Below, in pieces: positions 28,811 through 62,156 of a stretch of 64,000 nt of DNA. This DNA comes from Candidatus Bathyarchaeota archaeon (lineage in GTDB: Archaea > Thermoproteota > Bathyarchaeia > Bathyarchaeales > Bathycorpusculaceae): the NCBI GenBank assembly GCA_963702095.1, contig OY969706.1, positions 2,784,001-2,848,000 of the forward strand, given 5' to 3'. The notes beneath the pieces were generated by a model. The model did not search any database and was not told where the DNA came from. It worked only from the letters and a program-made list of their open reading frames with translations. The first letter of the stretch is position 1, and each line of letters starts with the position of its first letter. Both the position numbers and the translations under genes were made by a program.

Positions 28811-28945
28811 TTTTGTTTTTTTAATATTAAGAAGAAGAGAAGATGCCCCTTACTCATCATCTACCCGCGGGCTTGGCAGGCAACTGTTTTTTTGCGTCAG
28901 CGTTTGAGATGCATTGCAGGCTGGTTGAGGCGATTCCACAAGCAG
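28811..28945 (+). repeat. dispersed intergenic repeat family R1, copy 1
   Basis: Aligns to 29683-29817, 36955-37090 and 62022-62156. Confidence 0.85.
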
Positions 28946-29014
28946 ATAGCGGGTTAGGCGTATTCACACCAAAAAATATAACTACTGTGACATTAAATGT
29001 AATCCCGGTAACAT

Positions 29015-29215
29015 ATGACTCAATGTTTAGCTAAAACAAGAAAAGTCGGCGGCTCAATTGTAGTGACTTTGCCCAAAGAAATCGTTGAAAGCAAGAAAAT
29101 CAAAGAAGGCGAAATCATCGAAATCACCGTAAAAAAAGTCCGCAAAGAAGGCTTCGGAATCCTAAAAGGCGTAGGACCATTCACTGCCGAAGACGAGCTG
29201 ACAACTCATGACTAA
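29015..29215 (+). CDS. vapB: AbrB/MazE-type antitoxin
   Basis: KTRKVGGSIVVTLPKEIV..KIKEGE; overlaps the PIN gene. Confidence 0.88.
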   Translation: MTQCLAKTRKVGGSIVVTLPKEIVESKKIKEGEIIEITVKKVRKEGFGILKGVGPFTAEDELTTHD

Positions 29216-29591
29216 ACACGTCATCGACGCCTACGCATGGATAGAATACCTAGACGGCAGTGCCAAAGGCAAAAAGGTAGCGGCAATCCTCGAGGAAAAC
29301 GACGAAATATACACCTGCGCCATAACACTGGGCGAAGTAGTGAGCAAAGTTGCACGCATTGGCAAAGACGCAAAAATAGCCTACGACATCCTGCTAAGCA
29401 ACTCTCAAATAATCACAGCAGACGAAGAACTATCCCTACAAGCAGGGCTCGTCCATTGTGAGATGCGAAAAACACAAAAAGACATCGGATTAGCAGACGC
29501 CTACATCCTAGCCGTCGCACGAAAACTCAAATCAAAAATTCTCACAGGCGACCCCCATTTCCAAGGGCTAAAAGAAGCAATAATGCTGTAA
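29208..29591 (+). CDS. vapC: PIN domain toxin
   Basis: VIDAYAWIEY, LADAYILA, LTGDPHF. Confidence 0.9.
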   Translation: MTKHVIDAYAWIEYLDGSAKGKKVAAILEENDEIYTCAITLGEVVSKVARIGKDAKIAYDILLSNSQIITADEELSLQAGLVHCEMRKTQKDIGLADAYILAVARKLKSKILTGDPHFQGLKEAIML

Positions 29592-29682
29592 CTGCATTAA
29601 TGCATTGACCAAAGCTCCCCACAACACCCAACCAAACATCAATACTGCCAACGGCTAAACGCCTAAACAGATCAGAACCACC

Positions 29683-29817
29683 GCTTGATTCTCTAACTCT
29701 AAGTAGTAGTGAAAAACCCCTATACACAACAACAACCAGCAGATCAAGAAGAACAATGCATTGCAACTTCAGCGCCTGGGGACGACTGCAGGCTGGTTGT
29801 GCAGTCACCGCAAGCAA
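29683..29817 (+). repeat. R1 repeat, diverged copy 2
   Basis: Gapless alignment to copy 1 at offset 872; shares TCAGCG, TGCAGGCTGGTTG and CAAGCA. Confidence 0.7.
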
Positions 29818-30189
29818 CGCCGTTAAGCCACGTTGGCGAGGTCACATGCGATTTTTTCTCTACTCCCCTCTATTTATAGGCTCCACAAACGCAGAGTAAA
29901 CCGCTTTTTAGATAGGCGACCACTGAAAAACCATAAAAGTGGTTGTGCGGTTGCAAGGTTTTATGTGGTGGTCGTCAACAGTTGTTTTGGCGTTAGCGTA
30001 AGGTTTACGTTGCAGACCTGTGAGGGGCAAATCCGCAAACAGCAACCCACCCATCAGACACCACACCAAACAACCCAACAAAAACAACATAGCTCTAAAC
30101 CACGCTTACCGAACAGTAAAAACCACACACCCAACAAAACACAAACACTACAAATGGCTAAACGCCTTATGTGTCCTTTCTTTCTTTGA

Positions 30190-30560
30190 CCTACCTATAC
30201 CTCAGAGAGAGGTCCCCTCCCCTCTACTGGTCCTGAAACGAGTTTCTAATGGGCACCAAATATACCGGCTGTTACCTTTCCCTCTATAGGTTCCAGCATA
30301 GAACCACTAATAGGTCCCAAATAGGTCGCCTAAACCCCTATTGGAAAACAGCAGATTATCCTAATAGGCAATGCAATATCCTAAATACTATTTTCAGGTC
30401 GCTAATTTTTAATCACCCTATCTGAGGCATTAATGCAATTCATAGACCAATAATCAATTACCATTATTCATTATCTGAATAAAATATTGAAAAATTGAAT
30501 ATAACTCGTATGTTTATGGCTTTTCATCACATTTAAATTACGGCCAAATCACTAATCTGT
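30190..30560. other. candidate replication origin / AT-rich regulatory region
   Basis: Within a 1.3-kb ORF-poor gap; repeated ATAGG motifs, ORB-like words and an AT-rich tract at about 30440-30545. Confidence 0.3.
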
Positions 30561-30885
30561 AATATGACCCAGTTGCCGCTCCTAACGACCAATCCGCCTG
30601 TGATTACAGAAGTCCTTTCGGAGGAAGGCTTCAAGGCTTACTTGGTTGGGTTTAACTTTAAGAATTATCGTTGGGATGATTTTATAGAGCCAAAATTTGA
30701 TTGACAGAGCAGAACTAATTCCTTACGAGCGGTCAAAGGTTCTTAAGAATCTTTAGATACTTTACCCTTGTAGTATTAGCATTAACTAACGCCAAGAGCC
30801 AGACGAAGTGCGTTTTTTAGCTTATTTGTCATAAAGTATAAGAATAAGGGTGTTTCCTTATTGGGAAGCTGGTAGTGAATTTACC

Positions 30886-31161
30886 GTGAATGTTCCTAAA
30901 GAAGTCAATACGTACTGTCCTAAATGTAAACATCACACTGTTCATACTGTTAGCCTCTACAAGGCTGGTAAACGCCGTGCATTGGCTGCAGGTGAACGCG
31001 CCCACGCACGTGAAAAAGAAGGTTACGGCGGACAAAAATATCCGTTGCAACGCGAGTTTGCTAAAACCACAAAGAAGCAGACCCTGCGCTTAAAATGCAA
31101 GACCTGCAACTATATGTATCACAAAGACGGTATCCGCCTAAGAAAACTAGCAATAGTGTAG
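30886..31161 (+). CDS. rpl44e: 50S ribosomal protein L44e
   Basis: PKEVNTYCPKC..H, GYGGQK, KTTKK, LKCKTC. Confidence 0.96.
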   Translation: MNVPKEVNTYCPKCKHHTVHTVSLYKAGKRRALAAGERAHAREKEGYGGQKYPLQREFAKTTKKQTLRLKCKTCNYMYHKDGIRLRKLAIV

Positions 31162-31181
31162 AATTAATTGGAGAAATAAAA

Positions 31182-31379
31182 ATGTCTGATTGGAACAAAC
31201 TTATCCCCAAGCCACGCAGCGTTTTTCTGCGGGTCAAATGCGCCAAATGCGGCAATGAACAACTCATTTTCAGCAACGCAGTCAACGTCATAACCTGCAA
31301 CGTATGCGGCACAACCTTAGCTGAACCCAGCGGTGGCAGAGCCAAAATCAACGGCGAAGTTCTCTCCGTGCTTGAGTAG
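31182..31379 (+). CDS. rps27e: 30S ribosomal protein S27e
   Basis: PRSVFLRVKCAKCGNEQ...CNVCG...PSGGRA. Confidence 0.96.
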   Translation: MSDWNKLIPKPRSVFLRVKCAKCGNEQLIFSNAVNVITCNVCGTTLAEPSGGRAKINGEVLSVLE

Positions 31380-31391
31380 GAGAGCAACCGC

Positions 31392-32177
31392 ATGGCTGAG
31401 CGTAAGCCGCAGTGGCCTGAAGTCGGCGACCTCGTCATCGCCACCATAGAAACCGTCACTGACTACGGCGCCTACGCCAGACTCGACGAATATGACAAAC
31501 GCGGGTTACTCCATGTTTCCGAAATTTCTTCTTCATGGATAAGAAACATACGTGACTTCATCCGTGAAAACCAAAAAGTTACCCTCAAAGTTCTCAGAGT
31601 TGACCATGAAAAAGGCCACATAGACCTCTCCTTGCGCCGGGTCACCAAACGCGAACGCATAGAAAAGGTGATGTCTTGGAAGAAGGAACGCAAAGCCGAA
31701 GCCCTCGTCCGCGGCGTAGCAGAGAAAGTCGGTTTAACCAGCGATGAGGTTTACCAGGAAGCAGGCGCTGCCATAGAGGAGAAATATGACCTCTACGAGG
31801 CGTTTGAGAAAGCCGCCATCGAAGGCCCCGAAGCACTCACCGATTTAGGCGTCCCAGAAAACCTTGCCAAAGCATTCAGTGAAGTCGCCGAGGAACGCAT
31901 CCACGTAAAAATGGTCAAGGTCCGCGGAGTCCTAGAAATCCGAGTGGTTAAACCCAACGGCGTAAAGGTCATAAAAGAAGCTTTTTACAAAGCCGAGAAG
32001 GAGAAACTCAAAGATGCCAAAGTCACTTTCTACGTTATAGCTGCGCCAAAATACAGTGTTGAGGTGCAGGCAGAAAACTATAAGCGCGCTGAAGACGTTA
32101 TTCAGAAAACAGCGGATAACGTTGTTACCTATATCAGTAGGGCTGGCGGGCAGGGCAGTTTTAGAAGGGAAAAGTAG
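31392..32177 (+). CDS. eif2a: translation initiation factor aIF-2 alpha
   Basis: PEVGDLV S1 domain, LHVSEISS, KGHIDLS, AAPKY. Confidence 0.96.
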   Translation: MAERKPQWPEVGDLVIATIETVTDYGAYARLDEYDKRGLLHVSEISSSWIRNIRDFIRENQKVTLKVLRVDHEKGHIDLSLRRVTKRERIEKVMSWKKERKAEALVRGVAEKVGLTSDEVYQEAGAAIEEKYDLYEAFEKAAIEGPEALTDLGVPENLAKAFSEVAEERIHVKMVKVRGVLEIRVVKPNGVKVIKEAFYKAEKEKLKDAKVTFYVIAAPKYSVEVQAENYKRAEDVIQKTADNVVTYISRAGGQGSFRREK

Positions 32178-32344
32178 TGGTTTGGCAACTGCGCAAATGC
32201 GTAAACTGCAACGCATACACCCTAAACAAAGCCACTTGTCCCGCATGCGGGGGACCAGTTAGGATTCCGCATCCCGCCAAGTTTTCCCCCGACGACAAAT
32301 ACCTCAAGTATCGAATGGCAATGAAAAGGAGCCAAACAGAATGA
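32177..32344 (+). CDS. nop10: H/ACA RNP protein Nop10 (55 aa; absent from ORF track)
   Basis: Translated by hand: MVWQLRKCVNCNAYTL...CPACGG...PHPAKFSPDDKYLKYR; conserved synteny. Confidence 0.93.
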   Translation: MVWQLRKCVNCNAYTLNKATCPACGGPVRIPHPAKFSPDDKYLKYRMAMKRSQTE

Positions 32345-33111
32345 AGGAAACCTACATTAAAGAATTCAGCGAAGTCCAAGCCAACAGCCCCGTCCTCATC
32401 GAAGGATTACCTGGACTCGGACTAGTGGGCAAAATCGCTTTACGCTACCTTATCAAGCAGTTGAAACCAAAAAAAATCGCTTACCTCTACTCGCCCCATT
32501 TTCCATATTTCGTGCTCGTGAACAAGAAGGGCAACGTGCGACTGCTAAGAGGAGCATTCTACTATTACCAAAACCCCAAAGGACAAGACATCCTCCTCTT
32601 CACAGGCGACAGCCAATCTCAAACAATCGAGGGACAATACGAAATCGCCGACCGCATGCTCGACTTCAGTGAGCGCCATGGCGTAAAAACCATCGCCACC
32701 ATAGGCGGCTACCGCATGGAACCCAAGGAGAAACCCAAAGTCTACATAGCCGCCACCGACCACGCCATCCTCCAGAGGGCAGTCGACGCCGGCGCAACTT
32801 TGTCCACAGCAGGCAGCCCAATAGTGGGCACTGCAGGACTCATCTTGGGCGTAGCAAAATTCAAACACATCGAGGCACTGTGCCTACTAGGCGAAACACG
32901 CGGCTACCTCCCTGATCCACAAGCCGCCAAAAGCGTGCTTGAAGTGCTAAAAGCCACTTTCAACTTCGATTTGGACCTCAAGGGCTTAGACGAAGAAATA
33001 GTCAAAGCAGAAACCATGGTCACCAAACTCCAGCAGATCGAAGCCAAACGCGCACTCGAAGCCGAAGAAACCCGTAAACAAGACGACAAAAAGACAACCT
33101 ACATCTCTTAA
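32341..33111 (+). CDS. PAC2-family proteasome assembly chaperone
   Basis: LIEGLPGLGLVGKIA, CLLGET.GY.PDP; synteny with nop10. Confidence 0.92.
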   Translation: MKETYIKEFSEVQANSPVLIEGLPGLGLVGKIALRYLIKQLKPKKIAYLYSPHFPYFVLVNKKGNVRLLRGAFYYYQNPKGQDILLFTGDSQSQTIEGQYEIADRMLDFSERHGVKTIATIGGYRMEPKEKPKVYIAATDHAILQRAVDAGATLSTAGSPIVGTAGLILGVAKFKHIEALCLLGETRGYLPDPQAAKSVLEVLKATFNFDLDLKGLDEEIVKAETMVTKLQQIEAKRALEAEETRKQDDKKTTYIS

Positions 33112-34226
33112 ACAAAGCTTTTCTTTATTATTTCCACAGTGCGTTCAGCTGCGTGTCCATCGCCGAAAGGCGACACAGTCGGCAACGCCTCATCTTTTGC
33201 CACCGCCTCGTTTATGGCGGATAAAATGCGGTTCTTATCGGTGCCTACAACCGTGGCAAAACCTGTTTCCACCGCTTCCTGACGCTCAGTTGACAACCGA
33301 ATAACCAACACACGCTTGCGTATGCTGGGTGCGGTGGCTTCTTCTTGGATGCCGCCTGAATCGGTGATGATTAATTTGCAGTTCTTTTCCAGTAGCAGAA
33401 AGTCGAGGTACCCAAGCGGCGGAAAAATCTTCACGTTTGGCATGGCTTCTATTCTTTGGATGATGTGGCTTTCTTGGAGGCGCTTGCGTGTCCGCGGATG
33501 CATCGGGTACACCACAGGCAACGGCGACTTAGCAAATACTTCCACAAACGAATCCAACACGGCGGGGTCATCGACGTTTTCGGCTCGGTGTGCAGTCGAC
33601 AACGCAAACTCCTCAAACGGTATCTGCTGCATAATCTTGGATTTTTTTTCCGCGATGGGCAAATGCTCGTTAACCGCGTCGATGGCTGTGTTGCCGGTGA
33701 GGTAGATTTTTCCCCACACGTTCTCCTTGCGCAGGTTGCCGATGGCACGCTCTGTTGGTGCGAAAAGATACTCGGAGATGTGGTCGGTTAAGCGGCGGTT
33801 ATGTTCCTCAGGCATACGCAAATCAAAACTCCGCAAGCCCGCCTCAACATGGCCGATGGGTACACCACGTTTGTTCGCCGCCAATGCAGCTGACAGTACG
33901 GTGTTGGTATCGCCTTCGACGAGCACGATTGACGGGTCGATTTTGCACAGCAAATCATTAATCTTCGCCATGATCTCAGCGGTCTGTGCTCCGGGCGAGG
34001 CAGAATCGATTTTAAGCCAAAAGTCAGGCGCCGCCAGTTCGAGGTTTTCGATGAATTGCTGCGCCATGTTGTAGTCATAGTGTTGCCCGCAGTGCACAAA
34101 CACCATGGGCAAGGCGGCTTTTTTTAGGGCGCGGATGATGGGCGCCATCTTGATTATTTCAGGCCGTGTTCCCGTGACTACAACAACTGGCTTCACGTTT
34201 GCTGCACCTATGTCTTCTTTAAGCAT
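33108..34226 (-). CDS. wecB: UDP-N-acetylglucosamine 2-epimerase (non-hydrolysing)
   Basis: GTRPEIIKM, HVEAGLRS, PEEHNR, TDSGGIQEEA. Confidence 0.95.
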   Translation of the reverse strand: MLKEDIGAANVKPVVVVTGTRPEIIKMAPIIRALKKAALPMVFVHCGQHYDYNMAQQFIENLELAAPDFWLKIDSASPGAQTAEIMAKINDLLCKIDPSIVLVEGDTNTVLSAALAANKRGVPIGHVEAGLRSFDLRMPEEHNRRLTDHISEYLFAPTERAIGNLRKENVWGKIYLTGNTAIDAVNEHLPIAEKKSKIMQQIPFEEFALSTAHRAENVDDPAVLDSFVEVFAKSPLPVVYPMHPRTRKRLQESHIIQRIEAMPNVKIFPPLGYLDFLLLEKNCKLIITDSGGIQEEATAPSIRKRVLVIRLSTERQEAVETGFATVVGTDKNRILSAINEAVAKDEALPTVSPFGDGHAAERTVEIIKKSFV

Positions 34227-36238
34227 CCTTCCCGCGGCTCATAAATGGTGCCCTCACGCAGCAACTGCCCAATCATACGTTCGATTTCGCCTCTGGGAAT
34301 CTTGTGCTTTGTCTCCAACTCATTCACTAATGCGTCGCGTTCAACGATGCCGGTGACTTTCTCCATTTCCATGATGGTTGAGATGACCATGCCTAAGCGG
34401 TCACGGATACTCTTGGGGCGCCCCGTCATGATTAAGTCGATGTCAACTTTGAAGCTGGACATGTCGATGCCTACTTCCTCAAGCGACCTCTTCATGATAG
34501 CTATGGCTGCTTCAGCATCCTCCTGGGTTACAGTGGGACGCAAAGCAACACGGGCACGGGCTTCGGCAACTCGGACCAGCGCTTCGAGTTGGCGGGCAGT
34601 GATGGCGACGGGGGAACCTTCGGTTTCACTGGCGGAACGCATAGCTAAGTAGAAGTCGCTTAAACGTTTTAGTGCTTCTTCGCTAAGTTCAGGTTTGACG
34701 GTTTTGGCGTAACTAATGTACTTGCGCAGCAACTCTGAGTCAACTTGAGCTTCAACAGGGCTTATTCCGCGTCTATGCATCTCTAGGATGTGGCGAGACA
34801 TTTTGCTATCCGATTCTTTGTTGGGGATGTCTCGGAGTACGAATATGAGGTCAAAACGGGATAAGATGGTGACTGGCAACGAAATGTTTTCTGCAACGGT
34901 GCGGTTGGGTTCATACCTGCCCAGCGAAGGGTTAGCCGCAGCGAGTACGGCGGTGCGAGCGTTTAAGGTGGCAACGATGCCTCCTTTAGCAACGGAAACA
35001 GTGTGCTGCTCCATAGCTTCGTGGATGGCAACACGGTCTTCAGGACGCATTTTATCCATTTCGTCGATACAGGCGATTCCTTTGTCGGCTAGCACCAAAG
35101 CTCCTGCTTCCAGCGACATACTTCCGCCTTTCTCTCTAACAACGGCGGCGGTTAAACCTGCAGCGGTGGTACCTCTGCCCGATGTGTAGAGTCCCCTTGG
35201 TGCAATACGCGAGACATACTGAAGCAACTGGCTTTTGGCGGTTCCAGGGTCACCGATGATTAAAGCGTTGAGTTCGCCTCTTATGCTCATGTCTGGGAGG
35301 GTTCTCGATACTCCGCCAAACAGCAGGTACATGACGGCTTCTTTTAAGTGTTCGTTGCCAAAGATGGAGGGGGCGATAGATGTCATGATTTTTTTGTGCA
35401 CTTGGGGGTCTTTGGAGAGTTCGAGGATTTTGGCTTCTTCCTCGGGTGTGGGAGGGGAGGTTTCGGGTTCTTTGCCTAGCACTTCGATTGAGTTAGCGTC
35501 AAGTTGAAGGATAAACGTGCGGAGTTTGCCCATACCCATCAGTGAAGGCGCAAAAGCCCGCACTACGCCCACGATTGAAACGTGGTCGCCTGGTCTTGCG
35601 ACGTCGACTATTTCGTCTCCAATCAGCTTAACCGCGAGGACCCTTGGCAGCTGTCCAGGCGGGAGGTCTTCTGGTTTTTCCTGTAGACGCAGGTCCTGTG
35701 AGTCGATGAAGTTGGATTCTTCTTGGCTGAACTCGAAGGGTCCGTCTCTGCCGCAGTCAGGCGCCTGGCAGATGGCTGGGGCTTTGAGGAACTGGCCGTT
35801 TTGCTCCACCTGGTTCATGGTTCCGCAACGTTTGCATTTGAAAGCCGCAATCTGAACCATCGGGCGGACGGGTGTGGCTCGCACAACTATGCCTTCTATC
35901 ATGACGAGTTTGCTCATTTGCCTTGAGCCTAGGCGACGCAGCTGCTCTTTGCCCAGCAGCTTTACGACTCTGACTATGATTTTGTCGATTTTCTCAGCGT
36001 ACTCCGCATCTTCGATGCGTAACTGTTCAAATGCACCTTTGCCGGCGTGCTGCAAAAACTCTTCAGGCTTAGCCAGCAAAAGTTCAGCCAGTGCCTGGTC
36101 GAAGCTGTAGAGTTCCTCAAAATCGATGGTTAAACTGTTTTTACCTGTAATGGCTAGCTGGGCGATTCTCTGCCGATATTTTTCTTTTTTGAAGAATTCT
36201 TGGAACCGCTGCTGGGGATCAACTGTTTCCAGCGTCAT
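34208..36238 (-). CDS. mcm: replicative helicase MCM (no intein)
   Basis: GDPGTAKSQ, IDEMDKM, AAANP, LSRFD, TARQLE. Confidence 0.97.
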   Translation of the reverse strand: MTLETVDPQQRFQEFFKKEKYRQRIAQLAITGKNSLTIDFEELYSFDQALAELLLAKPEEFLQHAGKGAFEQLRIEDAEYAEKIDKIIVRVVKLLGKEQLRRLGSRQMSKLVMIEGIVVRATPVRPMVQIAAFKCKRCGTMNQVEQNGQFLKAPAICQAPDCGRDGPFEFSQEESNFIDSQDLRLQEKPEDLPPGQLPRVLAVKLIGDEIVDVARPGDHVSIVGVVRAFAPSLMGMGKLRTFILQLDANSIEVLGKEPETSPPTPEEEAKILELSKDPQVHKKIMTSIAPSIFGNEHLKEAVMYLLFGGVSRTLPDMSIRGELNALIIGDPGTAKSQLLQYVSRIAPRGLYTSGRGTTAAGLTAAVVREKGGSMSLEAGALVLADKGIACIDEMDKMRPEDRVAIHEAMEQHTVSVAKGGIVATLNARTAVLAAANPSLGRYEPNRTVAENISLPVTILSRFDLIFVLRDIPNKESDSKMSRHILEMHRRGISPVEAQVDSELLRKYISYAKTVKPELSEEALKRLSDFYLAMRSASETEGSPVAITARQLEALVRVAEARARVALRPTVTQEDAEAAIAIMKRSLEEVGIDMSSFKVDIDLIMTGRPKSIRDRLGMVISTIMEMEKVTGIVERDALVNELETKHKIPRGEIERMIGQLLREGTIYEPREGCLKKT

Positions 36239-36816
36239 TGCTTGTCGGCTCCGTTTTCAAGAATCTTGGCTTTCCATTCAGATATGATTTTTACAAGTTG
36301 ATCGTAGACTATTTTTTCCTCTTTGGTTAATTTGTTTAGGACTTGTTCGCTTTGACCGGGGCCCGAGGCTAAGGCGACGATTTTTTTGAGGCGGGAGTTG
36401 ACGATGTCGCGGGCTAAGTGTTTGACGCGTTCGCATTCCTGGTATTTTTCGGATTGTTGGCTCTGGGTGGCTTGGGTTTTTAGGTCTTGGAGGAACCTGC
36501 GGAGTTTAGGGTAGAATTCTTCGGGTAACTCGCTGATTTGCCCCGGCACCTGCACGCCCTCCTTCCACTGTGCCTTAAACAGTTTGGTGGAGTCCAAGAT
36601 TTCGTCTTCTCGGAAATGCACCATACCCGCGGAAGCTAACTCTTTTGCTACCCAAAAGTAAACTTCGTATTCGTTGCCTTCGTCGAAGGGTCCAACAATT
36701 AAGCCTGCCAACTTGATTTCGGGGCAGTTGCGGTTCGCCACGATTTTCACTGGCGAATTCTCATAGCAGAAGTCCAGTGTGCCTATTTTAGCTGCCAACC
36801 CGTCTATCCCTCTCAA
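36235..36816 (-). CDS. GINS complex subunit (Gins23-type)
   Basis: EVYFWVAKEL, ELPEEFY, RLKKIV..A, LT.EEK..Y; directly upstream of mcm. Confidence 0.85.
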   Translation of the reverse strand: MRGIDGLAAKIGTLDFCYENSPVKIVANRNCPEIKLAGLIVGPFDEGNEYEVYFWVAKELASAGMVHFREDEILDSTKLFKAQWKEGVQVPGQISELPEEFYPKLRRFLQDLKTQATQSQQSEKYQECERVKHLARDIVNSRLKKIVALASGPGQSEQVLNKLTKEEKIVYDQLVKIISEWKAKILENGADKQ

Positions 36817-36954
36817 CCTAGCCCTTTTTTGGGGGTCACAAGTATAGCTTAGGTGACAGTTAAGGGTTTTGCATTACTACCTGTTTGGCTCTGCCATCTA
36901 TTGGAAAGGGAATTTAGGGTTTTTTTGCGCTTTTCTAGATGATTTTGGCTGTAA

Positions 36955-37090
36955 TTTTGTTTTTTCTAGTGTTAGATGAAGGCAGAGTGCCCCTTACTCA
37001 TCATCTTCCTGTGGACTTGGTGGGCGGCTTTGTTTTGCGTTCTGCAACGGAAATGGTTTACATGCTGGTTGTGGCTGATTCTACAAGTAG
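36955..37090 (+). repeat. R1 repeat, copy 3
   Basis: TGCCCCTTACTCATCATCT identical to copy 1; GTTTTGCGTTCTGCAA identical to copy 4. Confidence 0.88.
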
Positions 37091-37121
37091 GGATGCTCCG
37101 CCAAAGAACTATCGACTTCTC

Positions 37122-37346
37122 CTAAGCCATAATTTCTATTTGTGTCTCGCCAGCCTTAGCCTTAATGATTGTGGCAACCAGTTCACCCATGAACTTGCTG
37201 GCGTTTAAAATTTCAATCTCCACTGGCTTGTCTTTATCATCAAAGTTAACTATAACTGCCCCATGGTCTTCGGCGTACGCTATCTGCTTCTTGCTTAAAA
37301 GAATGCTGAGCGTGTCGCCGACTCCGTCATAAGTTACCTTAGTCAT
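37122..37346 (-). CDS. DUF2283-family small protein
   Basis: KVTYD...D.L.I, VIVNFD...PVEIEILNAS. Confidence 0.8.
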   Translation of the reverse strand: MTKVTYDGVGDTLSILLSKKQIAYAEDHGAVIVNFDDKDKPVEIEILNASKFMGELVATIIKAKAGETQIEIMA

Positions 37347-37348
37347 GC

Positions 37349-38599: not shown

Positions 38600-38799
38600 G
38601 ATTGAGCCTCTATGTGAAAATCATAATTGGTGTTGATTAAATAAGAGTTCGCTTAATCGTTTTTACCTATTTAGCAGATGCTCTCTACACTATGACTTAG
38701 CTGGAATTGCGAGTCTACCTCTGCAGTTTCGGATGAGCGCTTTTTTGGCTGCAAAGGTTTTTATCCCACAATCTACTGCCGTCTAATGAGGAATCTTTT

Positions 38800-39389: not shown

Positions 39390-39475
39390 CCCTCTTTTTC
39401 TTTGTGGCACCCAGCATGCAACCACACATCTTTAAGAAGAAAGCAAACTCGCTCTAGAATTGATGTGACACATCT

Positions 39476-39703: not shown

Positions 39704-39718
39704 CCAAGATAAGATTTT

Positions 39719-39772
39719 GTGCTCTGGTTCGGGATTCGAACCTGAGTCATCGACTCTAAAGGTCGATATACT
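39719..39772 (-). repeat. degenerate copy of the 3' two-thirds of tRNA-Glu (att-like remnant)
   Basis: gtgctctggttcgggattcgaacctgagtcatcgactctaaaggtcgatatact vs tRNA gtgctccggccgggattcgaacccgggtcgccgactcgaaaggccggcatact. Confidence 0.8.
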
Positions 39773-39846: not shown

Positions 39847-39848
39847 AA

Positions 39849-51262: not shown

Positions 51263-51264
51263 AG

Positions 51265-53396: not shown

Positions 53397-53421
53397 CAGA
53401 TTTTGTAACTAGAAGGCTGTT

Positions 53422-54483
53422 TTAAGCTAAACCGTTAGCTACATACAGTTCTGCGCCAAGTATTCCTCCGCCAGCAGCGCCCCGCACTGTGTTGTGTCCA
53501 AGGCACATGTACTTGAAAGTCAAGATTGGGTCCTTGCGTATCCTGCCCACTGTAACTGCCATGCCGCGGCTTGTGCCTCGGTCGTAGCGGGGTTGGGGAC
53601 GGTTCTTTTCATGCCGAACCACGATGGGTTGGGCAGGTGCAGAGGGCAACTTGAGCAGTTGCGGAGCACCCCTGAAGTCTTCAAACGCCGCTTCAATCTG
53701 CTTCAGTGAGGGCTCCTGATCCAGCTTTACGAATATGGACTCTAAGTGCCCATCTTTAACGTTGACTCTGTTGCAGCTTGAGCTTATCTTGAAATCAGCG
53801 TTCACTACTCCATTGGCTCCGTTGTAGGTTCCAAGTATCTTGAGGGCTTCGGACTCCATCTTGTCTTCTTCGCCTGAAATGAATGGAACCACGTTGTCGA
53901 TGATATCCAGTGAAGCTACGCCTGGGTATCCTGCGCCGCTGAGAGCTTGCATTGTAGTAACTATGACCTGTTTTAAGCCGAACTGCATAAGCGGCTTTAG
54001 CGAAATCGCCATCTGCGTTGTACTGCAGTTGGGGTCAGTGGAGATGAAGCCGCTCCATCCGCGTTGTTTCTGCTGAATCTTGACCAATTCGATGTGGTCA
54101 GGGTTGATTTCTGGGATAAGCAAAGGAACGTCTTTTTCCATGCGGTGTGCGCTGGCTTTGCTAAACACTGGGTAGAGGGCTGCGAATTCCTTCTCCACTG
54201 GACCCGCTAAATCACCGGGTAAGGACGTGAATACTATGTCGAAATCGCCTGTTTGCTCCGCTGACTTCACGTCTATGTTAGCAACTGGCATTTCACCGAT
54301 TTCTCTGGGCATCTCTGTCTCCATGAGCCAGTTGCAGGCATCTTTGAATTTTTTGCCTGCGCTCCGCTCTGAAGCCGCGAGCACTGAGACCTCAAACCAG
54401 GGGTGTCCCTGTAAGAGTTGAATGTACCGCTGTCCCACGGCGCCTGTTGCGCCTAAAATGGCGACTTTACGCTTATTTGACAT
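53422..54483 (-). CDS. asd: aspartate-semialdehyde dehydrogenase
   Basis: GATGAVG, PNCST, QALSGAG, HNTVRGAA. Confidence 0.96.
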   Translation of the reverse strand: MSNKRKVAILGATGAVGQRYIQLLQGHPWFEVSVLAASERSAGKKFKDACNWLMETEMPREIGEMPVANIDVKSAEQTGDFDIVFTSLPGDLAGPVEKEFAALYPVFSKASAHRMEKDVPLLIPEINPDHIELVKIQQKQRGWSGFISTDPNCSTTQMAISLKPLMQFGLKQVIVTTMQALSGAGYPGVASLDIIDNVVPFISGEEDKMESEALKILGTYNGANGVVNADFKISSSCNRVNVKDGHLESIFVKLDQEPSLKQIEAAFEDFRGAPQLLKLPSAPAQPIVVRHEKNRPQPRYDRGTSRGMAVTVGRIRKDPILTFKYMCLGHNTVRGAAGGGILGAELYVANGLA

Positions 54484-54554
54484 TGAACGTTCTTCCTTCG
54501 ACGAGTCTCTTATTCTTTAACTTGATAAAAAAGGTAATGGTGAGTTTTTCGGTG

Positions 54555-55346
54555 TTAAGATAGTCCTAGCACGTCCGCCATAGAGTAGACTTTGGGTGTG
54601 GTTTGTTTGCTTATCCACTCGGCAGCGAGGACGGCGCCCTGAGCTAAGACGGTGCGGTTAAACGCGGTGTGTTCGATGCGCAGCATCTCGTTTGGTCCTG
54701 CAACGATGACGCAGTGGATTCCCGGTACTCCGCCTGCACGTATGGCAACGGACTCCAGTTCACCCGGGTGCCTTGGACTGATGCCTTCTCTGCCATAGAC
54801 GGTTTTGCTGTAATTGCGAGTCTCGGAAATGATTTGTTCCAGCTTTTTCGCTGTTCCGCTTGGCGCGTCCTTTTTACCTGTATGATGGATTTCGCAGAGG
54901 CTAACGTCATATCCTGCTGGGAACGCTTTGAGTTGTTCCGCGAGTTTGAAGAGTATGTTGACGCCTACACTGTAATTCGGCGAGAACACAGCCGGAACTT
55001 TACCCGACATTGCCTCAGTTACCTGTCGGTTCTGGTCTACTGTGAAGCCTGTGGTGCCGAGGACTATACGTTTGCCGAGGTCTACGGCGAGTGGTATGTT
55101 GACTAAATCTGCGGCTGGCGCTGTGAAGCTTATGAATATGTCGGCGTCTTTGAGGGCTTGCGTTAAACTGTCGGAACCTTGGATTAATGTGTCGGAGTTG
55201 CTGCCGAGTTCACGGAGGCTTTTACCGACCGCTGGTGAATTCGAGGCTTCGACTGCGCCTACGATCTGGTGTCCCCTGACGGTAGCTTCGCCTATGATGG
55301 CTTGCCCCATTCTGCCCGCTGCACCTGCGACACAGAGCTTAAGCAT
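54555..55346 (-). CDS. dapB: 4-hydroxy-tetrahydrodipicolinate reductase
   Basis: GAAGRMG, GTTG, EIHHTGKKDAPSGTA. Confidence 0.96.
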   Translation of the reverse strand: MLKLCVAGAAGRMGQAIIGEATVRGHQIVGAVEASNSPAVGKSLRELGSNSDTLIQGSDSLTQALKDADIFISFTAPAADLVNIPLAVDLGKRIVLGTTGFTVDQNRQVTEAMSGKVPAVFSPNYSVGVNILFKLAEQLKAFPAGYDVSLCEIHHTGKKDAPSGTAKKLEQIISETRNYSKTVYGREGISPRHPGELESVAIRAGGVPGIHCVIVAGPNEMLRIEHTAFNRTVLAQGAVLAAEWISKQTTPKVYSMADVLGLS

Positions 55347-56376
55347 AGTAGAGTCCCTCTATGTACTTCTCGTTGTAGAGGCGGTCTTTTAAATCCACGC
55401 TGAAATATTCAGCTATGGGCTCAAGAACCTGTGGGTTAGCTTCGTAGACTTTGCGTGCGCTAGCCAAAACAACTTCAACGCCGCCCCTCGTCATTTTACC
55501 CAGCGGTTGCCTACATGGTCCAGAGGGCATTCCCAGCACATTCATCAGCGTCTTGTAGGCAACTGGGTTACGTGCTTTACAGGCTACTGGACCATAGGGT
55601 GTTTGCTCAATGGTTTTTACCGTTACAATGTTAAACAGCGGCTGAAGTGCTTGGTTGATTACGCTGGCAGCTTCCTCGTTGCCGTCCAACGCGTAGTGCA
55701 CCATGTCTGCGACTGCTTGTGGCGCTACGTTTGAAACGACTGAGATTACTCCGCTGGCTGCTATGTCGGGTGAGGTCAGCATTGTTAAGGTTTTGTCGTC
55801 GTCCCCGCTTAGGATGTTAAAGTTTTCTCCGCAGAGGTGGCGGGTTAGTTCCATGTTTTTGAGGTCGCCTGTGGCTTCCTTGACGCAGCTCACGTTGGGA
55901 TACTGCGCGTGTAGAGCGGCGAGGTCTTGAGGGAGCAGTTGGGTGCCGGTTCTGCCTGGGATGATGTAGGGGATAACTTGGACTTCGGGGAAACGCTTTG
56001 CTACGGGTTCGATGTATTCTTTTCTGATTTCAAGTGAGCTTGGACCATTGTAGTAGGGGTCTACGAGCAAAACTGCAGTGATTCCTGCATGGTAGGCGTG
56101 TTCGGTGCCGTCGAGGGTTTCCTGTGTGCTGTTGCTGCCTGTGCCCGCGATCGTTAAGCCGCGTTTGCCCATGTATTCGTGGGTTTTCTCGATAACTTTG
56201 CTGTGTTCATTCCAGTCTAGCGTGGGGCTTTCGCCGGTTGTGCCGACGGCGAGGATGCCTTTGACGCCGTTTTTTATTTGGAAATCCACCAATTGTGCTA
56301 ATCCTTCGTAATCGACTTGGCGGTTACGGTTCATGGGGGTTATTAGTGCTGTGTAACAACCGCTGAATGTTGCCAA
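55339..56376 (-). CDS. dapA: 4-hydroxy-tetrahydrodipicolinate synthase
   Basis: GTTGESPTL, PYYN, Y.IPGRTG, KEATG, SGDD. Confidence 0.95.
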   Translation of the reverse strand: MATFSGCYTALITPMNRNRQVDYEGLAQLVDFQIKNGVKGILAVGTTGESPTLDWNEHSKVIEKTHEYMGKRGLTIAGTGSNSTQETLDGTEHAYHAGITAVLLVDPYYNGPSSLEIRKEYIEPVAKRFPEVQVIPYIIPGRTGTQLLPQDLAALHAQYPNVSCVKEATGDLKNMELTRHLCGENFNILSGDDDKTLTMLTSPDIAASGVISVVSNVAPQAVADMVHYALDGNEEAASVINQALQPLFNIVTVKTIEQTPYGPVACKARNPVAYKTLMNVLGMPSGPCRQPLGKMTRGGVEVVLASARKVYEANPQVLEPIAEYFSVDLKDRLYNEKYIEGLYYA

Positions 56377-56540
56377 TTTTTATTCCTCATATTCGTGGGT
56401 GACGAACTGATGGGTTGCACAATATTTAAGTTTTACGCTTTACATATTTTAACTACGGAAAACGTAATTGATTAATCATAAACATATTAGAAAATGCTCC
56501 AGTTATAACGCTTTACGTAAAAAAACAACGGCAAACAAGG

Positions 56541-56840
56541 TTAAGGCACAACAGTATACGCCGTAAAACACCCCTCACAACTACCATAAATCCTCCTCAA
56601 ATACGCCAACGCCTCATCCAACGTAGCAGCAGCCGGAATAACCTGTCGAAAATTATCTGCCCTAATAACCTCAGTTAACTTCCCCGTCTGCGTCCCAACT
56701 ATTCGCAACTTCAACAAACGCGATCCACAGGCAAACACTGCCACATCACCCATCCGAGGTCTACCCTTTCGTACATCGATTGTTTTTTTGCCCTCACTTA
56801 ACCACTCGAGAACCTCTTTTTTTGCCAGAAACATCGGCAC
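56541..56840 (-). CDS. ASCH/PUA-like domain protein
   Basis: GKKTIDVRKG...GDVAVF signature. Confidence 0.75.
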   Translation of the reverse strand: MPMFLAKKEVLEWLSEGKKTIDVRKGRPRMGDVAVFACGSRLLKLRIVGTQTGKLTEVIRADNFRQVIPAAATLDEALAYLRRIYGSCEGCFTAYTVVP

Positions 56841-56955
56841 CGCTAAACACCACGCCCAATTTGCCCTATCTATAAGATAAGTATTCAGTTAAAAAGCGGA
56901 TAGATACAAAAAATGAAAAAGTAGAGTTGGGGAACTTGGGGAAGAAACGGTTGGT

Positions 56956-57153
56956 TTACCCTTTGCCTTTTTCTTCTTTACCGAAGTACTGAGTCCACTT
57001 TAGCTTGCGTGCATCACGTTTGAATTCGAGGCTGCTCTTTTTGCATTTGCTGGAGTCAAACCAGAGGATTGAGCCGTCGTTTTTAACGTACATCATGCCT
57101 GTGCCAGCTGGGAAATCAGCACCACAGAACGAACATTTTCTCGGTTTTGGCAT
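56956..57153 (-). CDS. rpl24e: 50S ribosomal protein L24e
   Basis: CSFCG....GTGMMYVKNDG, SSKC, RKLKWT. Confidence 0.95.
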   Translation of the reverse strand: MPKPRKCSFCGADFPAGTGMMYVKNDGSILWFDSSKCKKSSLEFKRDARKLKWTQYFGKEEKGKG

Positions 57154-57174
57154 GACACATTTCTCCAAATAGTT

Positions 57175-57396
57175 TTATCTTGTGATTTTCTTTGCTTCAC
57201 GTTCAGTTTCTCGAAGCATCAGGATATCTTGAACGCGTACTGGTCCTTTAACGTTGCGTGTGATGATTCTGCCTTTGTCTTTGCCTTCCATGATTCTGAC
57301 GCGGACCTGTGTGATTTCGCCTGTTACGCCTGTGCGTCCGATGATTTGGATAACTTCCGAGGGAACTTGTTCGTCTGTTGTTTCTTTGCTACTCAT
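57175..57396 (-). CDS. rps28e: 30S ribosomal protein S28e
   Basis: [28 protein letters not shown]. Confidence 0.97.
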
Positions 57397-57397
57397 A

Positions 57398-57778
57398 TTA
57401 CTGAGTGCCTCGTTTAACCTGGTCGATGCGTGTGATGATTTCTTTGATTAAGCCTGCTGCTTCTCCCTCTCTCATGATGACTGCTGCTGCGCATGGGACT
57501 TCGATGCCGATGGATTTGCCGAGTTGTTCTTTGCTTGGGACAAAGACGTATGGGATTTTGCGTTCGTCACAGAGTAGTGGTAGGTGTGCAATGACTTCTG
57601 GGGGGTCAACGTCTTCGGCGATGATGACTAGTTTTGCTTGGCTGCGTTCCACAGCTTTTGTGGCTTCGTTTGTTCCTTTCCTAACTGATCCTGATTTTGA
57701 AGCAATCGTTAGGGCTTCATAGGCTGCATCTACGAGTTCTTTTGGGACTTCATACTTTACATAGAATGGTTTTGTCAT
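57398..57778 (-). CDS. rpl7ae: 50S ribosomal protein L7Ae
   Basis: [29 protein letters not shown]. Confidence 0.97.
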
Positions 57779-57944
57779 GTTTTCTTGGCCTCACCCTTGT
57801 TAAGGCACAGTCTTATCCACGCTTCACATTTAATAAGTTTTCGACTCCAAAAGATCATCTTTGTTCCTTCGCCTTATATACCATCCAGAAACCTTTAAAT
57901 CCCAAGCTACGGCTACATCCATGTTTTCGAGAGGGGAACCGCGT

Positions 57945-58187
57945 TTGCAAAGACTGGGCAGGATTTCAAATGTATCTCCTTCAGGAAACGCCATAGTTAA
58001 AGCAGAAAAACCCCCGAAAATCGGCTCCGAAGTCGTCGATGAGAACCTAAATGTTATCGGTAAAGTTTTCGACATAATTGGCCCGGTCTCTGCGCCTTAT
58101 GCAGTTATAAAACCCAACGTTAGAGAACCCGCCAAACTACTCAATAAACCAGTGTACTTGCTTCTCTCGAAGACAAAACGGAGTTAA
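57945..58187 (+). CDS. gar1: H/ACA RNP protein Gar1
   Basis: [15 protein letters not shown]; conserved gar1-tfb order; start uncertain (57921/57945). Confidence 0.9.
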
Positions 58188-58194
58188 AGAGAGA

Positions 58195-59169
58195 ATGATC
58201 AGAGACAGCAAGTTACAGGAAGAAATAAATCACGATCAAACCGCAGGCAAAGCCGAACCCTACAAGGCTCGAGTTTGCCCTGAATGCGGAAGCACCCGAC
58301 TTATGCATGATTCAGAAGCAGCAGAAATAGTGTGCATGGACTGCGGTATTGTTGTCCAACAGAAAATGACTGATCGAGGCCCGGAATGGCGAGCGTTTGA
58401 TGATGAACAACGCTCTAAAAGAACCAGAGTCGGTGCCCCCCTAACATACACCATCCATGATAAAGGGTTATCCACAACCATAGATTGGCATGACAGAGAC
58501 ATCTATGGCAAAAGCCTCTCTCCGGGGCAGAAAGCCCAGGTTTATCGTCTGCGAAAATGGCAACGCCGCATCAGAGTCTCCGATGCCACTGAACGTAACC
58601 TTGCCTTTGCACTCTCAGAAATCACAAAGATTTCCAACAACCTCAATTTACCAAAGAATATTTTGGAAACCGCCTCGGTTATCTATCGAAAAGCTGTCAA
58701 AGAACGCCTCATCCGCGGCAGATCCATTCAGGGTGTCACGTCAGCAGCGCTTTATTTGGCGTGTAGGCAATGCGGGTTGCCCAGAACCTTAGATGAGATT
58801 GCTCAAGCCTCAACCGTTAACAAGAAAGAGGTTGGTAGAAGCTATCGTTTCCTAATCCGTGAACTCAACTACTCCATTCCGCCGTTGCGTCCGAGCCAAT
58901 ACATCACAAAGTTCTCCAATCAGTTAACCATGCAGGGGAAAGTGGAGGAAATAGCACATAAAATCTTGGCTGCGGCAAAAGAACTTAAACTAACTTCTGG
59001 CAGAGGACCCACAGGCATCGCCGCCGCGGCAAGCTACATTGCATCAGTGCTCACGGGCGAACGGAAAACACAAAGAGAGATCGCTGAAATTGCGCAGGTT
59101 ACAGAGGTAACCATTCGTAACCGCTATAAAGAACTCGTCGATAGATTGATGTTTCAGATAAGTATCTAA
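58195..59169 (+). CDS. tfb: transcription initiation factor IIB
   Basis: CPECGS Zn ribbon, GPEWRAF, two cyclin repeats, [11 protein letters not shown]. Confidence 0.98.
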
Positions 59170-59205
59170 GCAACCGCTTCTTTCTTCTTTTTGGTTGGGT
59201 TGGCT

Positions 59206-59502
59206 ATGGTTGATGAGGGCTTCTTTGTAGAGGAGGTAGATAAGTTGACTCTACAGGAGTCTGTTGCTAAACTGCGGCAGATACACAAAGAGTTAAGAGT
59301 GGTCGCTGCTAACCTGCATGGAAAACTGGAGATGCTTGATTCAGAACCCCAATTGCATAGCAGCCTAGACAAGCTAAGGCAGGATGTAGAAGCAAGAGCA
59401 AGCGACCTCGAAGCAGAAGTGAAACGGTTACGCCAAGACCTAAAAAACGTAAAAGACCTCTTAGGGAACGGCAACGACAAAAAAGTATCAACCGATTCTT
59501 AG
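59206..59502 (+). CDS. small coiled-coil protein
   Basis: Heptad-rich (LEAEVKRLRQDL). Confidence 0.7.
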   Translation: MVDEGFFVEEVDKLTLQESVAKLRQIHKELRVVAANLHGKLEMLDSEPQLHSSLDKLRQDVEARASDLEAEVKRLRQDLKNVKDLLGNGNDKKVSTDS

Positions 59503-59547
59503 TAGAACATAGCTATTTTTTTAAGTGTGTAAAAACATTTCTAGGGT

Positions 59548-60162
59548 ATGCCCTATAAATTTACTTTCGACCTGTCTACTGTTCCGCGTTTTTTCTTCAC
59601 AGAATTAACCCTGATAAGCTACCAGAGGGGCATGCATAAATCCTTCCTGAAAACCGCTAACGACTTAATCATTAAATTCCGCATCCAGGAAGCTACGGGA
59701 CTCAACATCTCCGACGCCATAGTTGTGCTCCAAGACCTAATCGACTTGCAGGCGATTAACATCTCGGAGAGACGCAGGTTCCTAGAAACCAAGAAACGAG
59801 CGCTTTTTCTACCCCATTGCTCCCGCAAATACATGGATAGCCGCTGCAAAGCTACCTTCGACGCTTCCATCCCCTCCTACACGTGCGGTCAATGCTCTGA
59901 GGATTGCCAAGTAAACAAGGCAACTCAGTACGCTAAAAGCAAAGGCTATGACGTTTTCCTCCTCCCAGGCGGCTCCTGCATACCCAAAATCCTAAAGAGT
60001 GCACGTTACGAGGGTGTGGTCGGTGTGGCTTGCGGAGAAGAAATGAAGATGATGAGTCATCTGCTGGAGAGCATGGATGTGGCTGGGCAAGGTGTGCCAT
60101 TGATTAAGAACGGTTGTGCAAACACCATTTTTAACATGGAAACCATTGCTAAAGTTCTATAG
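59548..60162 (+). CDS. DUF116 family protein
   Basis: LFLPHCSR, C..C...C, LPGGS, VGVAC, GC.NT. Confidence 0.85.
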   Translation: MPYKFTFDLSTVPRFFFTELTLISYQRGMHKSFLKTANDLIIKFRIQEATGLNISDAIVVLQDLIDLQAINISERRRFLETKKRALFLPHCSRKYMDSRCKATFDASIPSYTCGQCSEDCQVNKATQYAKSKGYDVFLLPGGSCIPKILKSARYEGVVGVACGEEMKMMSHLLESMDVAGQGVPLIKNGCANTIFNMETIAKVL

Positions 60163-60217
60163 CATATATAGCGGTTGATGTTAGTAAAGCTTATAATACC
60201 AGAGCAGAGAGCATTTA

Positions 60218-60499
60218 ATGATTTACATGCCAGTGAAGAAAGCAGCAGCTAAACCGAAAGCTAAAACCAAACCGAAAACACAAGTAAAACCGAAAACTAA
60301 GACGAAGCCAAAAGCACAGGCGAAACCAAAAACAAAATTCTATCGGACAGGCGAAAAATGCCCCGAATCAGGACTCTACGAGCATTTCTGTAAGGAAAAA
60401 GGTGAGGGCGCACGGATTCCGCTGTCTAAATCGGAGACTTTTCCGCCTTGCCGTACCTGTGGCTCGGTTAAGTGGAAACTGATCATGTCAGCAAATTAA
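60218..60499 (+). CDS. Lys/Pro-rich repeat tail fused to YjzC-like small Zn domain
   Basis: Five KPK(A/T)xx hexads, then TGEKCPESGLY...TFPPC..C...W. Confidence 0.75.
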   Translation: MIYMPVKKAAAKPKAKTKPKTQVKPKTKTKPKAQAKPKTKFYRTGEKCPESGLYEHFCKEKGEGARIPLSKSETFPPCRTCGSVKWKLIMSAN

Positions 60500-60582
60500 T
60501 TTTCTCAATTTGATTATGCAGGTCTGCCAGTCTAGCCTCGGTTTGCGTAAACGATATATCGATTCACAATCTTAGGCATGTT

Positions 60583-61956
60583 GTGGCTAAATCTAAAATA
60601 ATAATTATCCTCTTAATAGTGGGTTTACTGGTTGCTTCAATAATAGTTTACCAACAGCAACTGTCCAACCTAGATTCATCATCAAACTCCGTCGGATTGC
60701 CAGCACCCCAAGGAAGCATTCTTTTCAAACAGGAAATCCGAGACTTCGCAAATACTATCGCGGTTGACGGCGGCAAATTTTTCACCCTGAATGACGACGG
60801 TGTGCTGTACTGTTTTGACGCCCAAAGCGGAAACCTACTCTGGCAAACCGTTGTTGACAACTGGCGTACAGGCGGATTAGTAATCAAAGATGAAATAATC
60901 TACGTTGGAGCAGTCGGCGGCGTTATAAAAACCGTGGATGAGCGCACCGGGAAACTGCTTGACTTACAGTTTGAGGCGCCTGTGAGCACTTCTTGGGGCA
61001 GTAAGAGTCCTCCCACTGCTTTCTCTGTTATTGAGGGTCGTGTGTTCGCTACCCAGACGGGTTGTAACGCCTTTAGCGCCGACACAGGTAGTCAACTTTG
61101 GATTTCTCTGCCCGTTACTATGCTTAACCCTCCTGACATGCCCTACACCGATAGCGTATGGGCGTTTAGCGATAATCTGGTTCTTGGCGCTGGAATGTAC
61201 CCTGCCGATAACACCTTTGCAGACGGATACTACCGAATCGACCCCGACAAGGGCGCTGTCATCTGGGCTATTGAATGCTCTAACATCCAAGAACCACTCA
61301 CATACCATAACAGAATAATCCTGACAAACTTTGGAAACAACATCCAAAAGTTCTGTACAAAAGTGTGTGTTGCCACCGCTTCCTCAGGAACCATCCTGTG
61401 GAGTTACGACATTGGATCACCAACTTACAAGCCAATAATCTATGGCGATTTGCTTCTACTGGTTGGCACAGACGGATATTTTTATGCCCTCAACCTCTCA
61501 AACGGTTCCTTATCCTGGAAGACACCCCTCAACAGTGACGGAACCCTCAAAGACGCGGCAGTATCCCCCATAAGAGTGGATGAACAAACCCAGAAGATAT
61601 ACTGGGCTTACGCCATCATCAGAACCAACGGCTCAGATAATAGCATAATCTACGATGGGGCATTGTGCAGCTTGGATCTGGCAACCGGCAGAAACCTTCG
61701 AACACAAACTTTCCAAAGCAACTGCACACAACCATTTTTTACAGACAGAAATCCGCTTTTGGGGTTAGCGCTGCTTAACCATACTGCCTTTTTGACTGTG
61801 CAAACTGATCTCTGGGCATTTCACAAGTCAAGTTTAGAAGTAGCTGGGATGCAGCATTTCGACCACAACCTTGTAGCACCCATTGCGGCTTATGGCAAAG
61901 TGTATGTTTCAGCAGACCTCTATGCACTGGCTTACAGCGACGCAGATGATAGTTAG
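60583..61956 (+). CDS. membrane-anchored PQQ-like beta-propeller protein
   Basis: N-terminal TM; repeated A.D..SG..LW blades. Confidence 0.85.
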   Translation: MAKSKIIIILLIVGLLVASIIVYQQQLSNLDSSSNSVGLPAPQGSILFKQEIRDFANTIAVDGGKFFTLNDDGVLYCFDAQSGNLLWQTVVDNWRTGGLVIKDEIIYVGAVGGVIKTVDERTGKLLDLQFEAPVSTSWGSKSPPTAFSVIEGRVFATQTGCNAFSADTGSQLWISLPVTMLNPPDMPYTDSVWAFSDNLVLGAGMYPADNTFADGYYRIDPDKGAVIWAIECSNIQEPLTYHNRIILTNFGNNIQKFCTKVCVATASSGTILWSYDIGSPTYKPIIYGDLLLLVGTDGYFYALNLSNGSLSWKTPLNSDGTLKDAAVSPIRVDEQTQKIYWAYAIIRTNGSDNSIIYDGALCSLDLATGRNLRTQTFQSNCTQPFFTDRNPLLGLALLNHTAFLTVQTDLWAFHKSSLEVAGMQHFDHNLVAPIAAYGKVYVSADLYALAYSDADDS

Positions 61957-62021
61957 CAGGTTTAAGCTCTATTTTTGTTTGGTCTTTGGTGAATGATTGC
62001 CCAAGTCTCCACACTTCTTTT

Positions 62022-62156
62022 CTTTGATCTTCTAGTGCTAGAAGAAGAGAGTGTCGCCTTTACTCAACATCTTCTTGCGGACTTTGCAGACGGTTGTGTT
62101 TTGCGTTCTGCAATGCCGATGGGTTGCTATCTGGTTGAGGCGATTTCTACAAGCAG
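62022..62156 (+). repeat. R1 repeat, copy 4
   Basis: Gapless alignment to 36955-37090; TCTTCTAG-TG-CTAGAAGA palindrome. Confidence 0.88.

Follow-up and report, generated by a model that had tools for sequence, protein, structure and literature searches.

R1, a dispersed repeat of a Bathyarchaeota genome, as the probable interior of a miniature inverted-repeat transposable element with ISH3-like ends

The R1 repeat in the window and in the genome

Four copies of a repeat of approximately 135 bp, designated R1, are located in a 64,000-nucleotide stretch of DNA (the window) from Candidatus Bathyarchaeota archaeon (assembly GCA_963702095.1, contig OY969706.1, positions 2,784,001 to 2,848,000). 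The genes of the window are archaeal (MCM, GINS, eIF2-alpha and TFIIB), and the genome that contains it (2.94 Mb) is designated G000. A first-pass annotation of the window had placed the four copies on one strand in a nearly gapless alignment, and this was borne out, at the same coordinates, by alignment (pairwise identity of 48-75%) and by scores with the family profile (E 1e-14 to 1e-31). The R1 features are as follows, in window coordinates.

28811..28945 (+): R1 copy 1 core, A-type; profile match; no recognisable terminal repeat remains
29665..29677 (+): copy 2, decayed remnant of the left terminal inverted repeat; 9/13 matches, score 9.7, weak alone
29683..29817 (+): R1 copy 2 core, T-type; profile match
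29983..30042 (+): R1 copy, probably partial, covering the right half only; E 0.018
36955..37090 (+): R1 copy 3 core, A-type; profile match; synteny breakpoint
62022..62156 (+): R1 copy 4 core, A-type; profile match
62165..62177 (+): copy 4, decayed remnant of the right terminal inverted repeat; 9/13 matches, score 9.7, weak alone

The four copies are real, but the family does not end with them: apart from the probable partial fifth copy in the window, 179 copies were identified in G000 with an iterated nhmmer profile at E<=1e-5, of which 164 are full length, and the best match in a reversed-genome control had an E value of 0.49. R1 occupies approximately 0.8% of G000 with a median spacing of 11.6 kb. 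The copies lie on both strands (82 + and 97 -), so their shared orientation within the window is a matter of local chance, and no clear bias in replichore polarity was observed in G000. The median pairwise identity is 60% and the nearest-neighbour identity 78%. Two subfamilies, A-type (98 copies) and T-type (66 copies), are distinguished among the 164 copies, and the length of the core is constant in 105 of them. According to in-house gene calls, 172/179 copies are intergenic, and the four possible orientations of the flanking genes are about equally frequent (41/49/42/40), with no preferred orientation of R1 to genes.

The annotation's judgement that R1 is probably non-coding holds. No coding signal was detected in any of the six frames (pN/pS 0.58-1.16 over all frames), stops occur per frame in 48-97 of the 98 A-type and 36-63 of the 66 T-type copies, and a small protein encoded by R1 was thereby ruled out. 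The right hairpin with its G.G mismatch is present in all four window copies, as had been described, and GG is also the commonest state of that pair in the family (262/318 copies). Both left palindromes that had been quoted are present in the sequence, but they are not family-wide.

Terminal repeats and the ISH3-like partner

An outer inverted repeat was first indicated by flank words around the R1 copies. The hairpins taken by the annotation for conserved ends do exist, but the true ends lie further out: a 13-bp terminal inverted repeat with the sequence CAGTAGATCAAAA flanks R1 on either side, pointing inward at fixed offsets. Among 284 copies of G000 and its sister genome G007 (~86% identical), this motif was found near R1 on the left of 75 and on the right of 65, compared with 4 and 9 in control windows, and ends remain beside 116/284 copies. 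Two-ended units are mostly 161-182 bp long, the 135-bp repeat is the interior of an element of 161-183 bp, and intact ends surround R1 cores in the genomes G055 and G131. Of 20 two-ended elements, pooled over R1, R2 and a third interior, 8 are flanked by an exact 4-bp target duplication (null mean 3.8, p=0.025) and none by one of 5 bp. In one pair of filled and empty sites, the 4-bp target is doubled with R1 and single without it.

Since the ends start with CAGT and those of the ISH3 family are CRGT, an ISH3 relationship was suspected. ISH3 elements are 1225-1500 bp long, generate 4-5 bp repeats and encode a transposase with a Y-2-R-3-E-3-R motif (PMC2266710). Five elements of 1113-1166 bp in the genus (L109, L110, L112, L113 and L114) end in the exact 13-bp motif of R1; four of them are flanked by exact 4-bp duplications and the fifth lies at a contig end. 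Their transposases are intact and carry an invariant D105, D183, E272 triad in 4/4 sequences. NF033541 is the best family match (E ~1e-51 to 1e-53), but the scores of 174-181 bits are below the cut-off of 225, and the partner is for this reason called ISH3-like. It resembles the ISH3 family in its CAGT ends, its 4-bp repeats and its best match, and differs in its shorter length, in the replacement of Y by F in the motif and in its score (PMC2266710). The annotation had named a match to the end of an insertion sequence (IS) as an outcome speaking against its own proposals; the 13-bp ends of R1 are identical to those of the ISH3-like IS.

Matches to NF033541 were detected in 22/120 genomes of the genus, none above cut-off and none in G000. 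Searches of G000 with PF01797, PF00078, PF01609, NF033541 and NF033540 gave no match, and tblastn and hmmsearch with 12 ISH3-like proteins found nothing there. The partner transposase was thus not found in G000 or in the portion of G007 compared, although G000 is rated 90% complete and absence is unproven. Two other relationships were rejected. A type I origin of R1, as a deletion derivative, was discarded with no significant R1 match inside 30 IS loci, and 18 further IS loci gave only one weak internal match (E 0.003). The IS701-like elements of the genus were excluded as partners by their different ends.

R1 was detected by BLAST in 21/120 genus genomes and in 0/16 genomes of other families. 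A search for the two-ended pattern matched 3/120 genomes (G055, G131 and G054), with R1 interiors in three elements of G055 and two of G131. The four two-ended elements of G054 (L139, L142, L145 and L147; 177-182 bp) have an unrelated third interior, and this genome contains 40 target-plus-end motifs, yet has no NF033541 match. G055 carries the intact IS as well as miniature elements. Exact end motifs occur 53 times in it (control 0), and the 30 examined adjoin R1 (16), a second repeat family designated R2 (13) or the IS (1). An R1 dimer inside a single pair of ends was also found in G055, and at L150 the IS is flanked by an R1 copy on each side.

R2 comprises ~113 copies of ~200 bp. In G055 it forms 262-305-bp units with the same ends (L194-L206, L215 and L219-L220), including two identical 278-bp elements with different flanks. 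In G000 R2 has lost the R1-type terminal repeats. R2 follows R1 in tandem at 9 places in G000 and 13 in G007, and together the two families make up 1.4% of G000. The likeness between R1 and R2 amounts to only 2-5 bits, in the middle. The minus strand of R2 contains a 60-codon frame that is often open.

Several side observations concern the IS and its targets. A 682-bp internal-deletion derivative of the ISH3-like IS with both ends intact is present in G047 (L122). IS relatives in records titled Thermoplasmata (L156, L157, L161, L162 and L165) have identical 13-bp ends, which indicates that the IS group spans two archaeal phyla. The IS and the miniature elements often lie in the middle of a C-rich/G-rich palindrome, whose core is AT-rich, or next to one of its arms (L109, L110, L112, L114, L122, L146 and the flanks of L194-L197; in G000 near 380680 and 2891159). 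Judging from these positions, the palindrome looks like a preferred target. It is itself a small repeat family with 25 matches in G000, seven of which adjoin R1 or R2.

Rearrangement, core constancy and competing explanations

Gene order was compared between G000 and G007. Flanks were available for 105 R1 copies of G007, and both flanks could be placed for 80: 25 are syntenic with a copy, 12 are syntenic without one and 43 lie at breakpoints. Syntenic sites lacking an R1 copy in the other genome number 12 and 10. R1 is present at 49/89 rearrangement junctions between the two genomes and R1 or R2 at 74/89; 51/178 junction ends are near R1, compared with 8.75% of gene edges (p=2e-14), and gaps containing an element are broken in 18/44 cases versus 26/208 (p=4e-5).

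The window copies illustrate these patterns. The orthologue of copy 1 in G007 retains the toxin-antitoxin (TA) gene pair on its right and has a different gene on its left. In G007 the two flanks of copy 3, GINS on the left and DUF2283-GDH on the right, lie next to two different R1 copies, and in the genome G003 GINS directly adjoins GDH with no R1 match. Copy 4 lies within a 3-kb block (~60550-63540), in place of which G007 has a single R1 copy.

Linkage between R1 columns decays within ~25 bp. The subfamily has changed in 5/21 R1 orthologues, and only 7/21 have the orthologue as their closest copy. Near-identical pairs were found among 5/124 nearby inverted, 0/139 nearby direct and 14/13,933 distant pairs. 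The copies are fine mosaics and therefore likely recombine. Contigs from two DNA sequencing runs proved to be a mixture of relatives.

The best explanation, with a probability of about 0.78, is that R1 forms the non-coding inner part of a MITE (a miniature inverted-repeat transposable element) of 161-183 bp with the ends of an ISH3-like IS, that the transposase of this IS likely spread it, and that the copies, most of which are without ends in G000, likely recombine and reshuffle the chromosome. R1 falls under the type II definition of prokaryotic MITEs (PMC10969869): it has terminal repeats, a unit below 500 bp, a target duplication and no coding capacity, and is alike to its partner in the ends only. 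That the ISH3-like DDE transposase mobilised R1 in trans is likely, given the common ends, the target pattern and the presence/absence differences, and R1 appears to be immobile at present in G000. Under this explanation, the transposase would move the element into AT-rich 4-bp intergenic targets, and most copies in G000 would then have lost their ends. Most rearrangements would result from homologous exchange within the core's conserved islands, and some earlier ones may have arisen through one-ended events driven by the transposase.

Several observations weigh against this explanation. The interior of R1 has no significant likeness to that of the IS (best E 0.07). A total of 168/284 copies of G000 and G007 score below 7 for an end, that is, they have no recognisable end, and the duplications are imperfect in 12/20 two-ended elements, although five of these 12 are TTAT/ATAA, as flank swapping would give. 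Most empty sites have ragged edges without clean boundaries. There is no clear recent transposition of R1, and the two copies of G131 that are 99% identical have common flanks. The exact target-plus-end pattern is missing from the genomes G005, G008 and G014 despite the R1 cores there; the core may therefore be older than the ends. The comparison covers one genome pair and 1.58 of the ~2.8 Mb of G007, the gene calls behind the context and junction counts are crude, and several of 11 two-sided junction calls were unclean on inspection. A final point concerns the core: 37 conserved positions, defined on 158 other copies and then scored in 21 orthologous pairs, differ by only 3.9% (29/736), and a neutral relic should not retain them so closely.

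This constancy is the basis of an explanation that is tentative and clearly less probable, in which the primary unit would be the core: a dispersed element of older date that serves the host (most likely as a fixed-length protein-binding scaffold) and that was captured as cargo, and spread, by ISH3-like ends. It is compatible with the MITE explanation and differs in the origin of the core and the reason for its retention. The 3.9% compares with 32% at 55,752 four-fold sites, 3.5% at second codon positions and 38% at the variable R1 columns. The conserved columns are kept equally with and without ends (7.4% vs 7.2%; 72 vs 117 copies), whereas ends are retained in both genomes at just 10/21 orthologous flanks. 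The constant length of the core and the occurrence of three interiors and an R1 dimer in the same ends also favour it. However, R1 copies are readily gained, lost and overwritten, show no preferred orientation to genes and are confined to 21 of the genus genomes by BLAST, and overwriting by paralogues can reduce divergence between orthologues without locus-specific selection.

The constancy of the core thus reflects either present host selection, older cargo, or overwriting that mimics selection. The preferred guess is that host-level selection on a site bound by a protein keeps both the positions and the length; continual overwriting by other copies is the alternative. A bolder and more doubtful extension is that the MITE interior has been domesticated as a fixed-length protein-binding scaffold of ~120 bp, kept at ~180 sites after the decay of the ends, which would form a genome-wide network of exchange points for inverting and shuffling gene blocks, with the ISH3-like ends serving as a reusable shuttle for the modules R1, R2 and the third interior.

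A tyrosine-recombinase core site consists of inverted arms around a 6-8 bp spacer that is common to the recombining partners. It is improbable that the right hairpin of R1 is such a site (two 10-bp inverted arms with a 6-bp spacer, dif-like) and that a tyrosine recombinase of the genome drives the rearrangements. The spacer is 6 nt long in 188/190 matched copies, the arms are conserved in sequence without covariation, seven PF00589 matches (five above cut-off) are present in G000, and linkage to the left flank falls to 0.18, 0.32 and -0.04 in the last three blocks (26 pairs). However, at least 25 spacer types occur, the commonest in 28/190 copies, and clean junction triads have no common spacer. 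Linkage decays along the whole element rather than at a single point, the last blocks contain only 2-6 variable columns, and 3/7 recombinase genes have no R1 copy within 6 kb. As a separate observation, G000 encodes six large tyrosine recombinases (L011-L016): at least two carry a CxxC segment resembling a zinc ribbon at the N-terminus, and one type, ~500 aa long, is present in three copies.

No greater weight is given to a reading of R1 as a structured non-coding RNA, or a 3'-UTR RNA element, with two hairpins; the annotation had suggested an unannotated ncRNA. Three pairs of the left stem exchange A-T for T-A (paired 0.84-0.91 vs 0.50-0.56 expected), and G-T mismatches of the right stem exceed A-C mismatches on the + strand (228 vs 45). 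However, the exchange occurs solely between the two subfamilies and represents a single split, no excess pairing was found inside either subfamily, and pairing of the right stem in 318 copies is no higher than column composition predicts. The + strand is G/T-rich in general. Folding is no better than that of shuffled sequences (mean z -0.3 to -0.7 on either strand), the top covarying columns are neighbours rather than pairs, orientation to genes is random, and an Rfam search of the window detected two tRNAs only, leaving R1 unmatched.

The proposals of a palindrome element of HUH type (REP/PATE) or an integron attC site are very improbable. REP/PATE elements, moved by a Y1 transposase of the HUH class, insert with neither a target duplication nor terminal inverted repeats, and integron attC arrays consist of tandem sites in the same orientation with one cassette gene before each. 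A hairpin close to either end of the core, the TA genes that separate copies 1 and 2, and an attC-like pair of 7-mers around copy 1 only agree with this reading. It is contradicted by the actual ends, where terminal inverted repeats and target duplications are present, by the lack of any PF01797 match in G000, by the absence of a tandem same-strand array and by PIN genes that are not enriched. The annotation's proposal of a non-autonomous mobile element is supported, but the type is that of a DDE MITE with terminal inverted repeats, as no Y1 transposase was found in G000. Its notion of a recombination site for gene cassettes is not supported, as the copies are dispersed in four about equally frequent gene contexts with no integron-type array, though they do mark rearrangement junctions.

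Related elements and neighbouring features

The MITE explanation places R1 among several described systems. SM3A of Sulfolobus is a 164-bp MITE mobilised by ISC1058 (PMC3718332). Like SM3A and other type II MITEs, R1 is short, non-coding, intergenic and multicopy, with IS likeness only in the terminal repeats (PMC10969869, PMC3718332), and like SM3A, the nearest stranded case in the literature covered, it is stranded in a genome without the transposase (PMC3718332). Unlike these examples, R1 has an ISH3-like partner and copies of fixed length that are ~60% alike, its core outlasts its ends, and several interiors occur with the same ends. In Halobacterium salinarum, ISH3C and MITEHsal2 trigger rearrangements, and mobile repeats lie at the junctions of inversions and deletions as R1 does here (PMC7002104). 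The copies of H. salinarum are 96-100% identical and active, whereas those of R1 are relics of 60-80% identity, and no MITE stands under the ISH3 class among the rows covered of the H. salinarum table (PMC7002104).

Repeats of the ERIC/Correia type are abundant, of R1-like size, and have reported host roles (promoters, an IHF site and RNase processing). R1, for which a host role is hypothetical, is likened to them by description, not by sequence. ERIC and Correia repeats are MITE-like intergenic repeats of bacteria (PMC10969869). The R1 family is undescribed in the literature searched, although supplements (e.g., the MITE tables of PMC11602168) or ISfinder could list it.

A likely mobiliser is named here for R1, and R1 and R2, two large orphan families of these archaea, are linked to one transposase, a putative archaeal DDE enzyme with ready-made mini-substrates. 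The repeats lie at the majority of the changes in gene order that separate two sister species, which bears on the reshuffling of Bathyarchaeia genomes. If the conserved interior truly has a host function, it would provide an archaeal example of MITE domestication that can be counted.

The remaining features of the window are the following.

19292..19473 (-): R2 core; second repeat family, which in G055 lies between the R1-type ends
27006..27207 (+): the other R2 core of the window
29015..29591 (+): gene pair for an AbrB/MazE-type antitoxin and a PIN (VapC-type) protein, located between R1 copies 1 and 2; neighbour, outside the element

An association of R1 with TA genes had been noted in the window. 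It does not extend to the genome, where 4/18 PIN genes are located within 500 bp of R1 compared with 91/734 size-matched genes (p=0.18; one match under cut-off dropped), and no recognisable TA gene lies beside copy 4. A 41-bp repeat, D3, which resembles the 3' end of a phosphatase gene, has three copies in G000, all of them inside the window (28759-28799, 29624-29664 and 30127-30167). Two D3 copies are located ahead of R1 copies 1 and 2, an arrangement that suggests old local duplications around the TA pair.

The gene adjoining copy 4 (62283-62744, +) encodes 153 amino acids with a weak Tfx-like DNA-binding match, and its homologues are located at several unlinked places in G003, G005, G007 and G008. 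A third repeat of G000, R3, is ~116 bp long and has 29 copies (e.g., 2291379-2291498), none of which is in the window; it occurs beside repeated genes of beta-propeller type. On the minus strand of the window, a 121-nt Rfam tRNA match at 26803-26923 that was not called by ARAGORN is probably an intron-containing tRNA.

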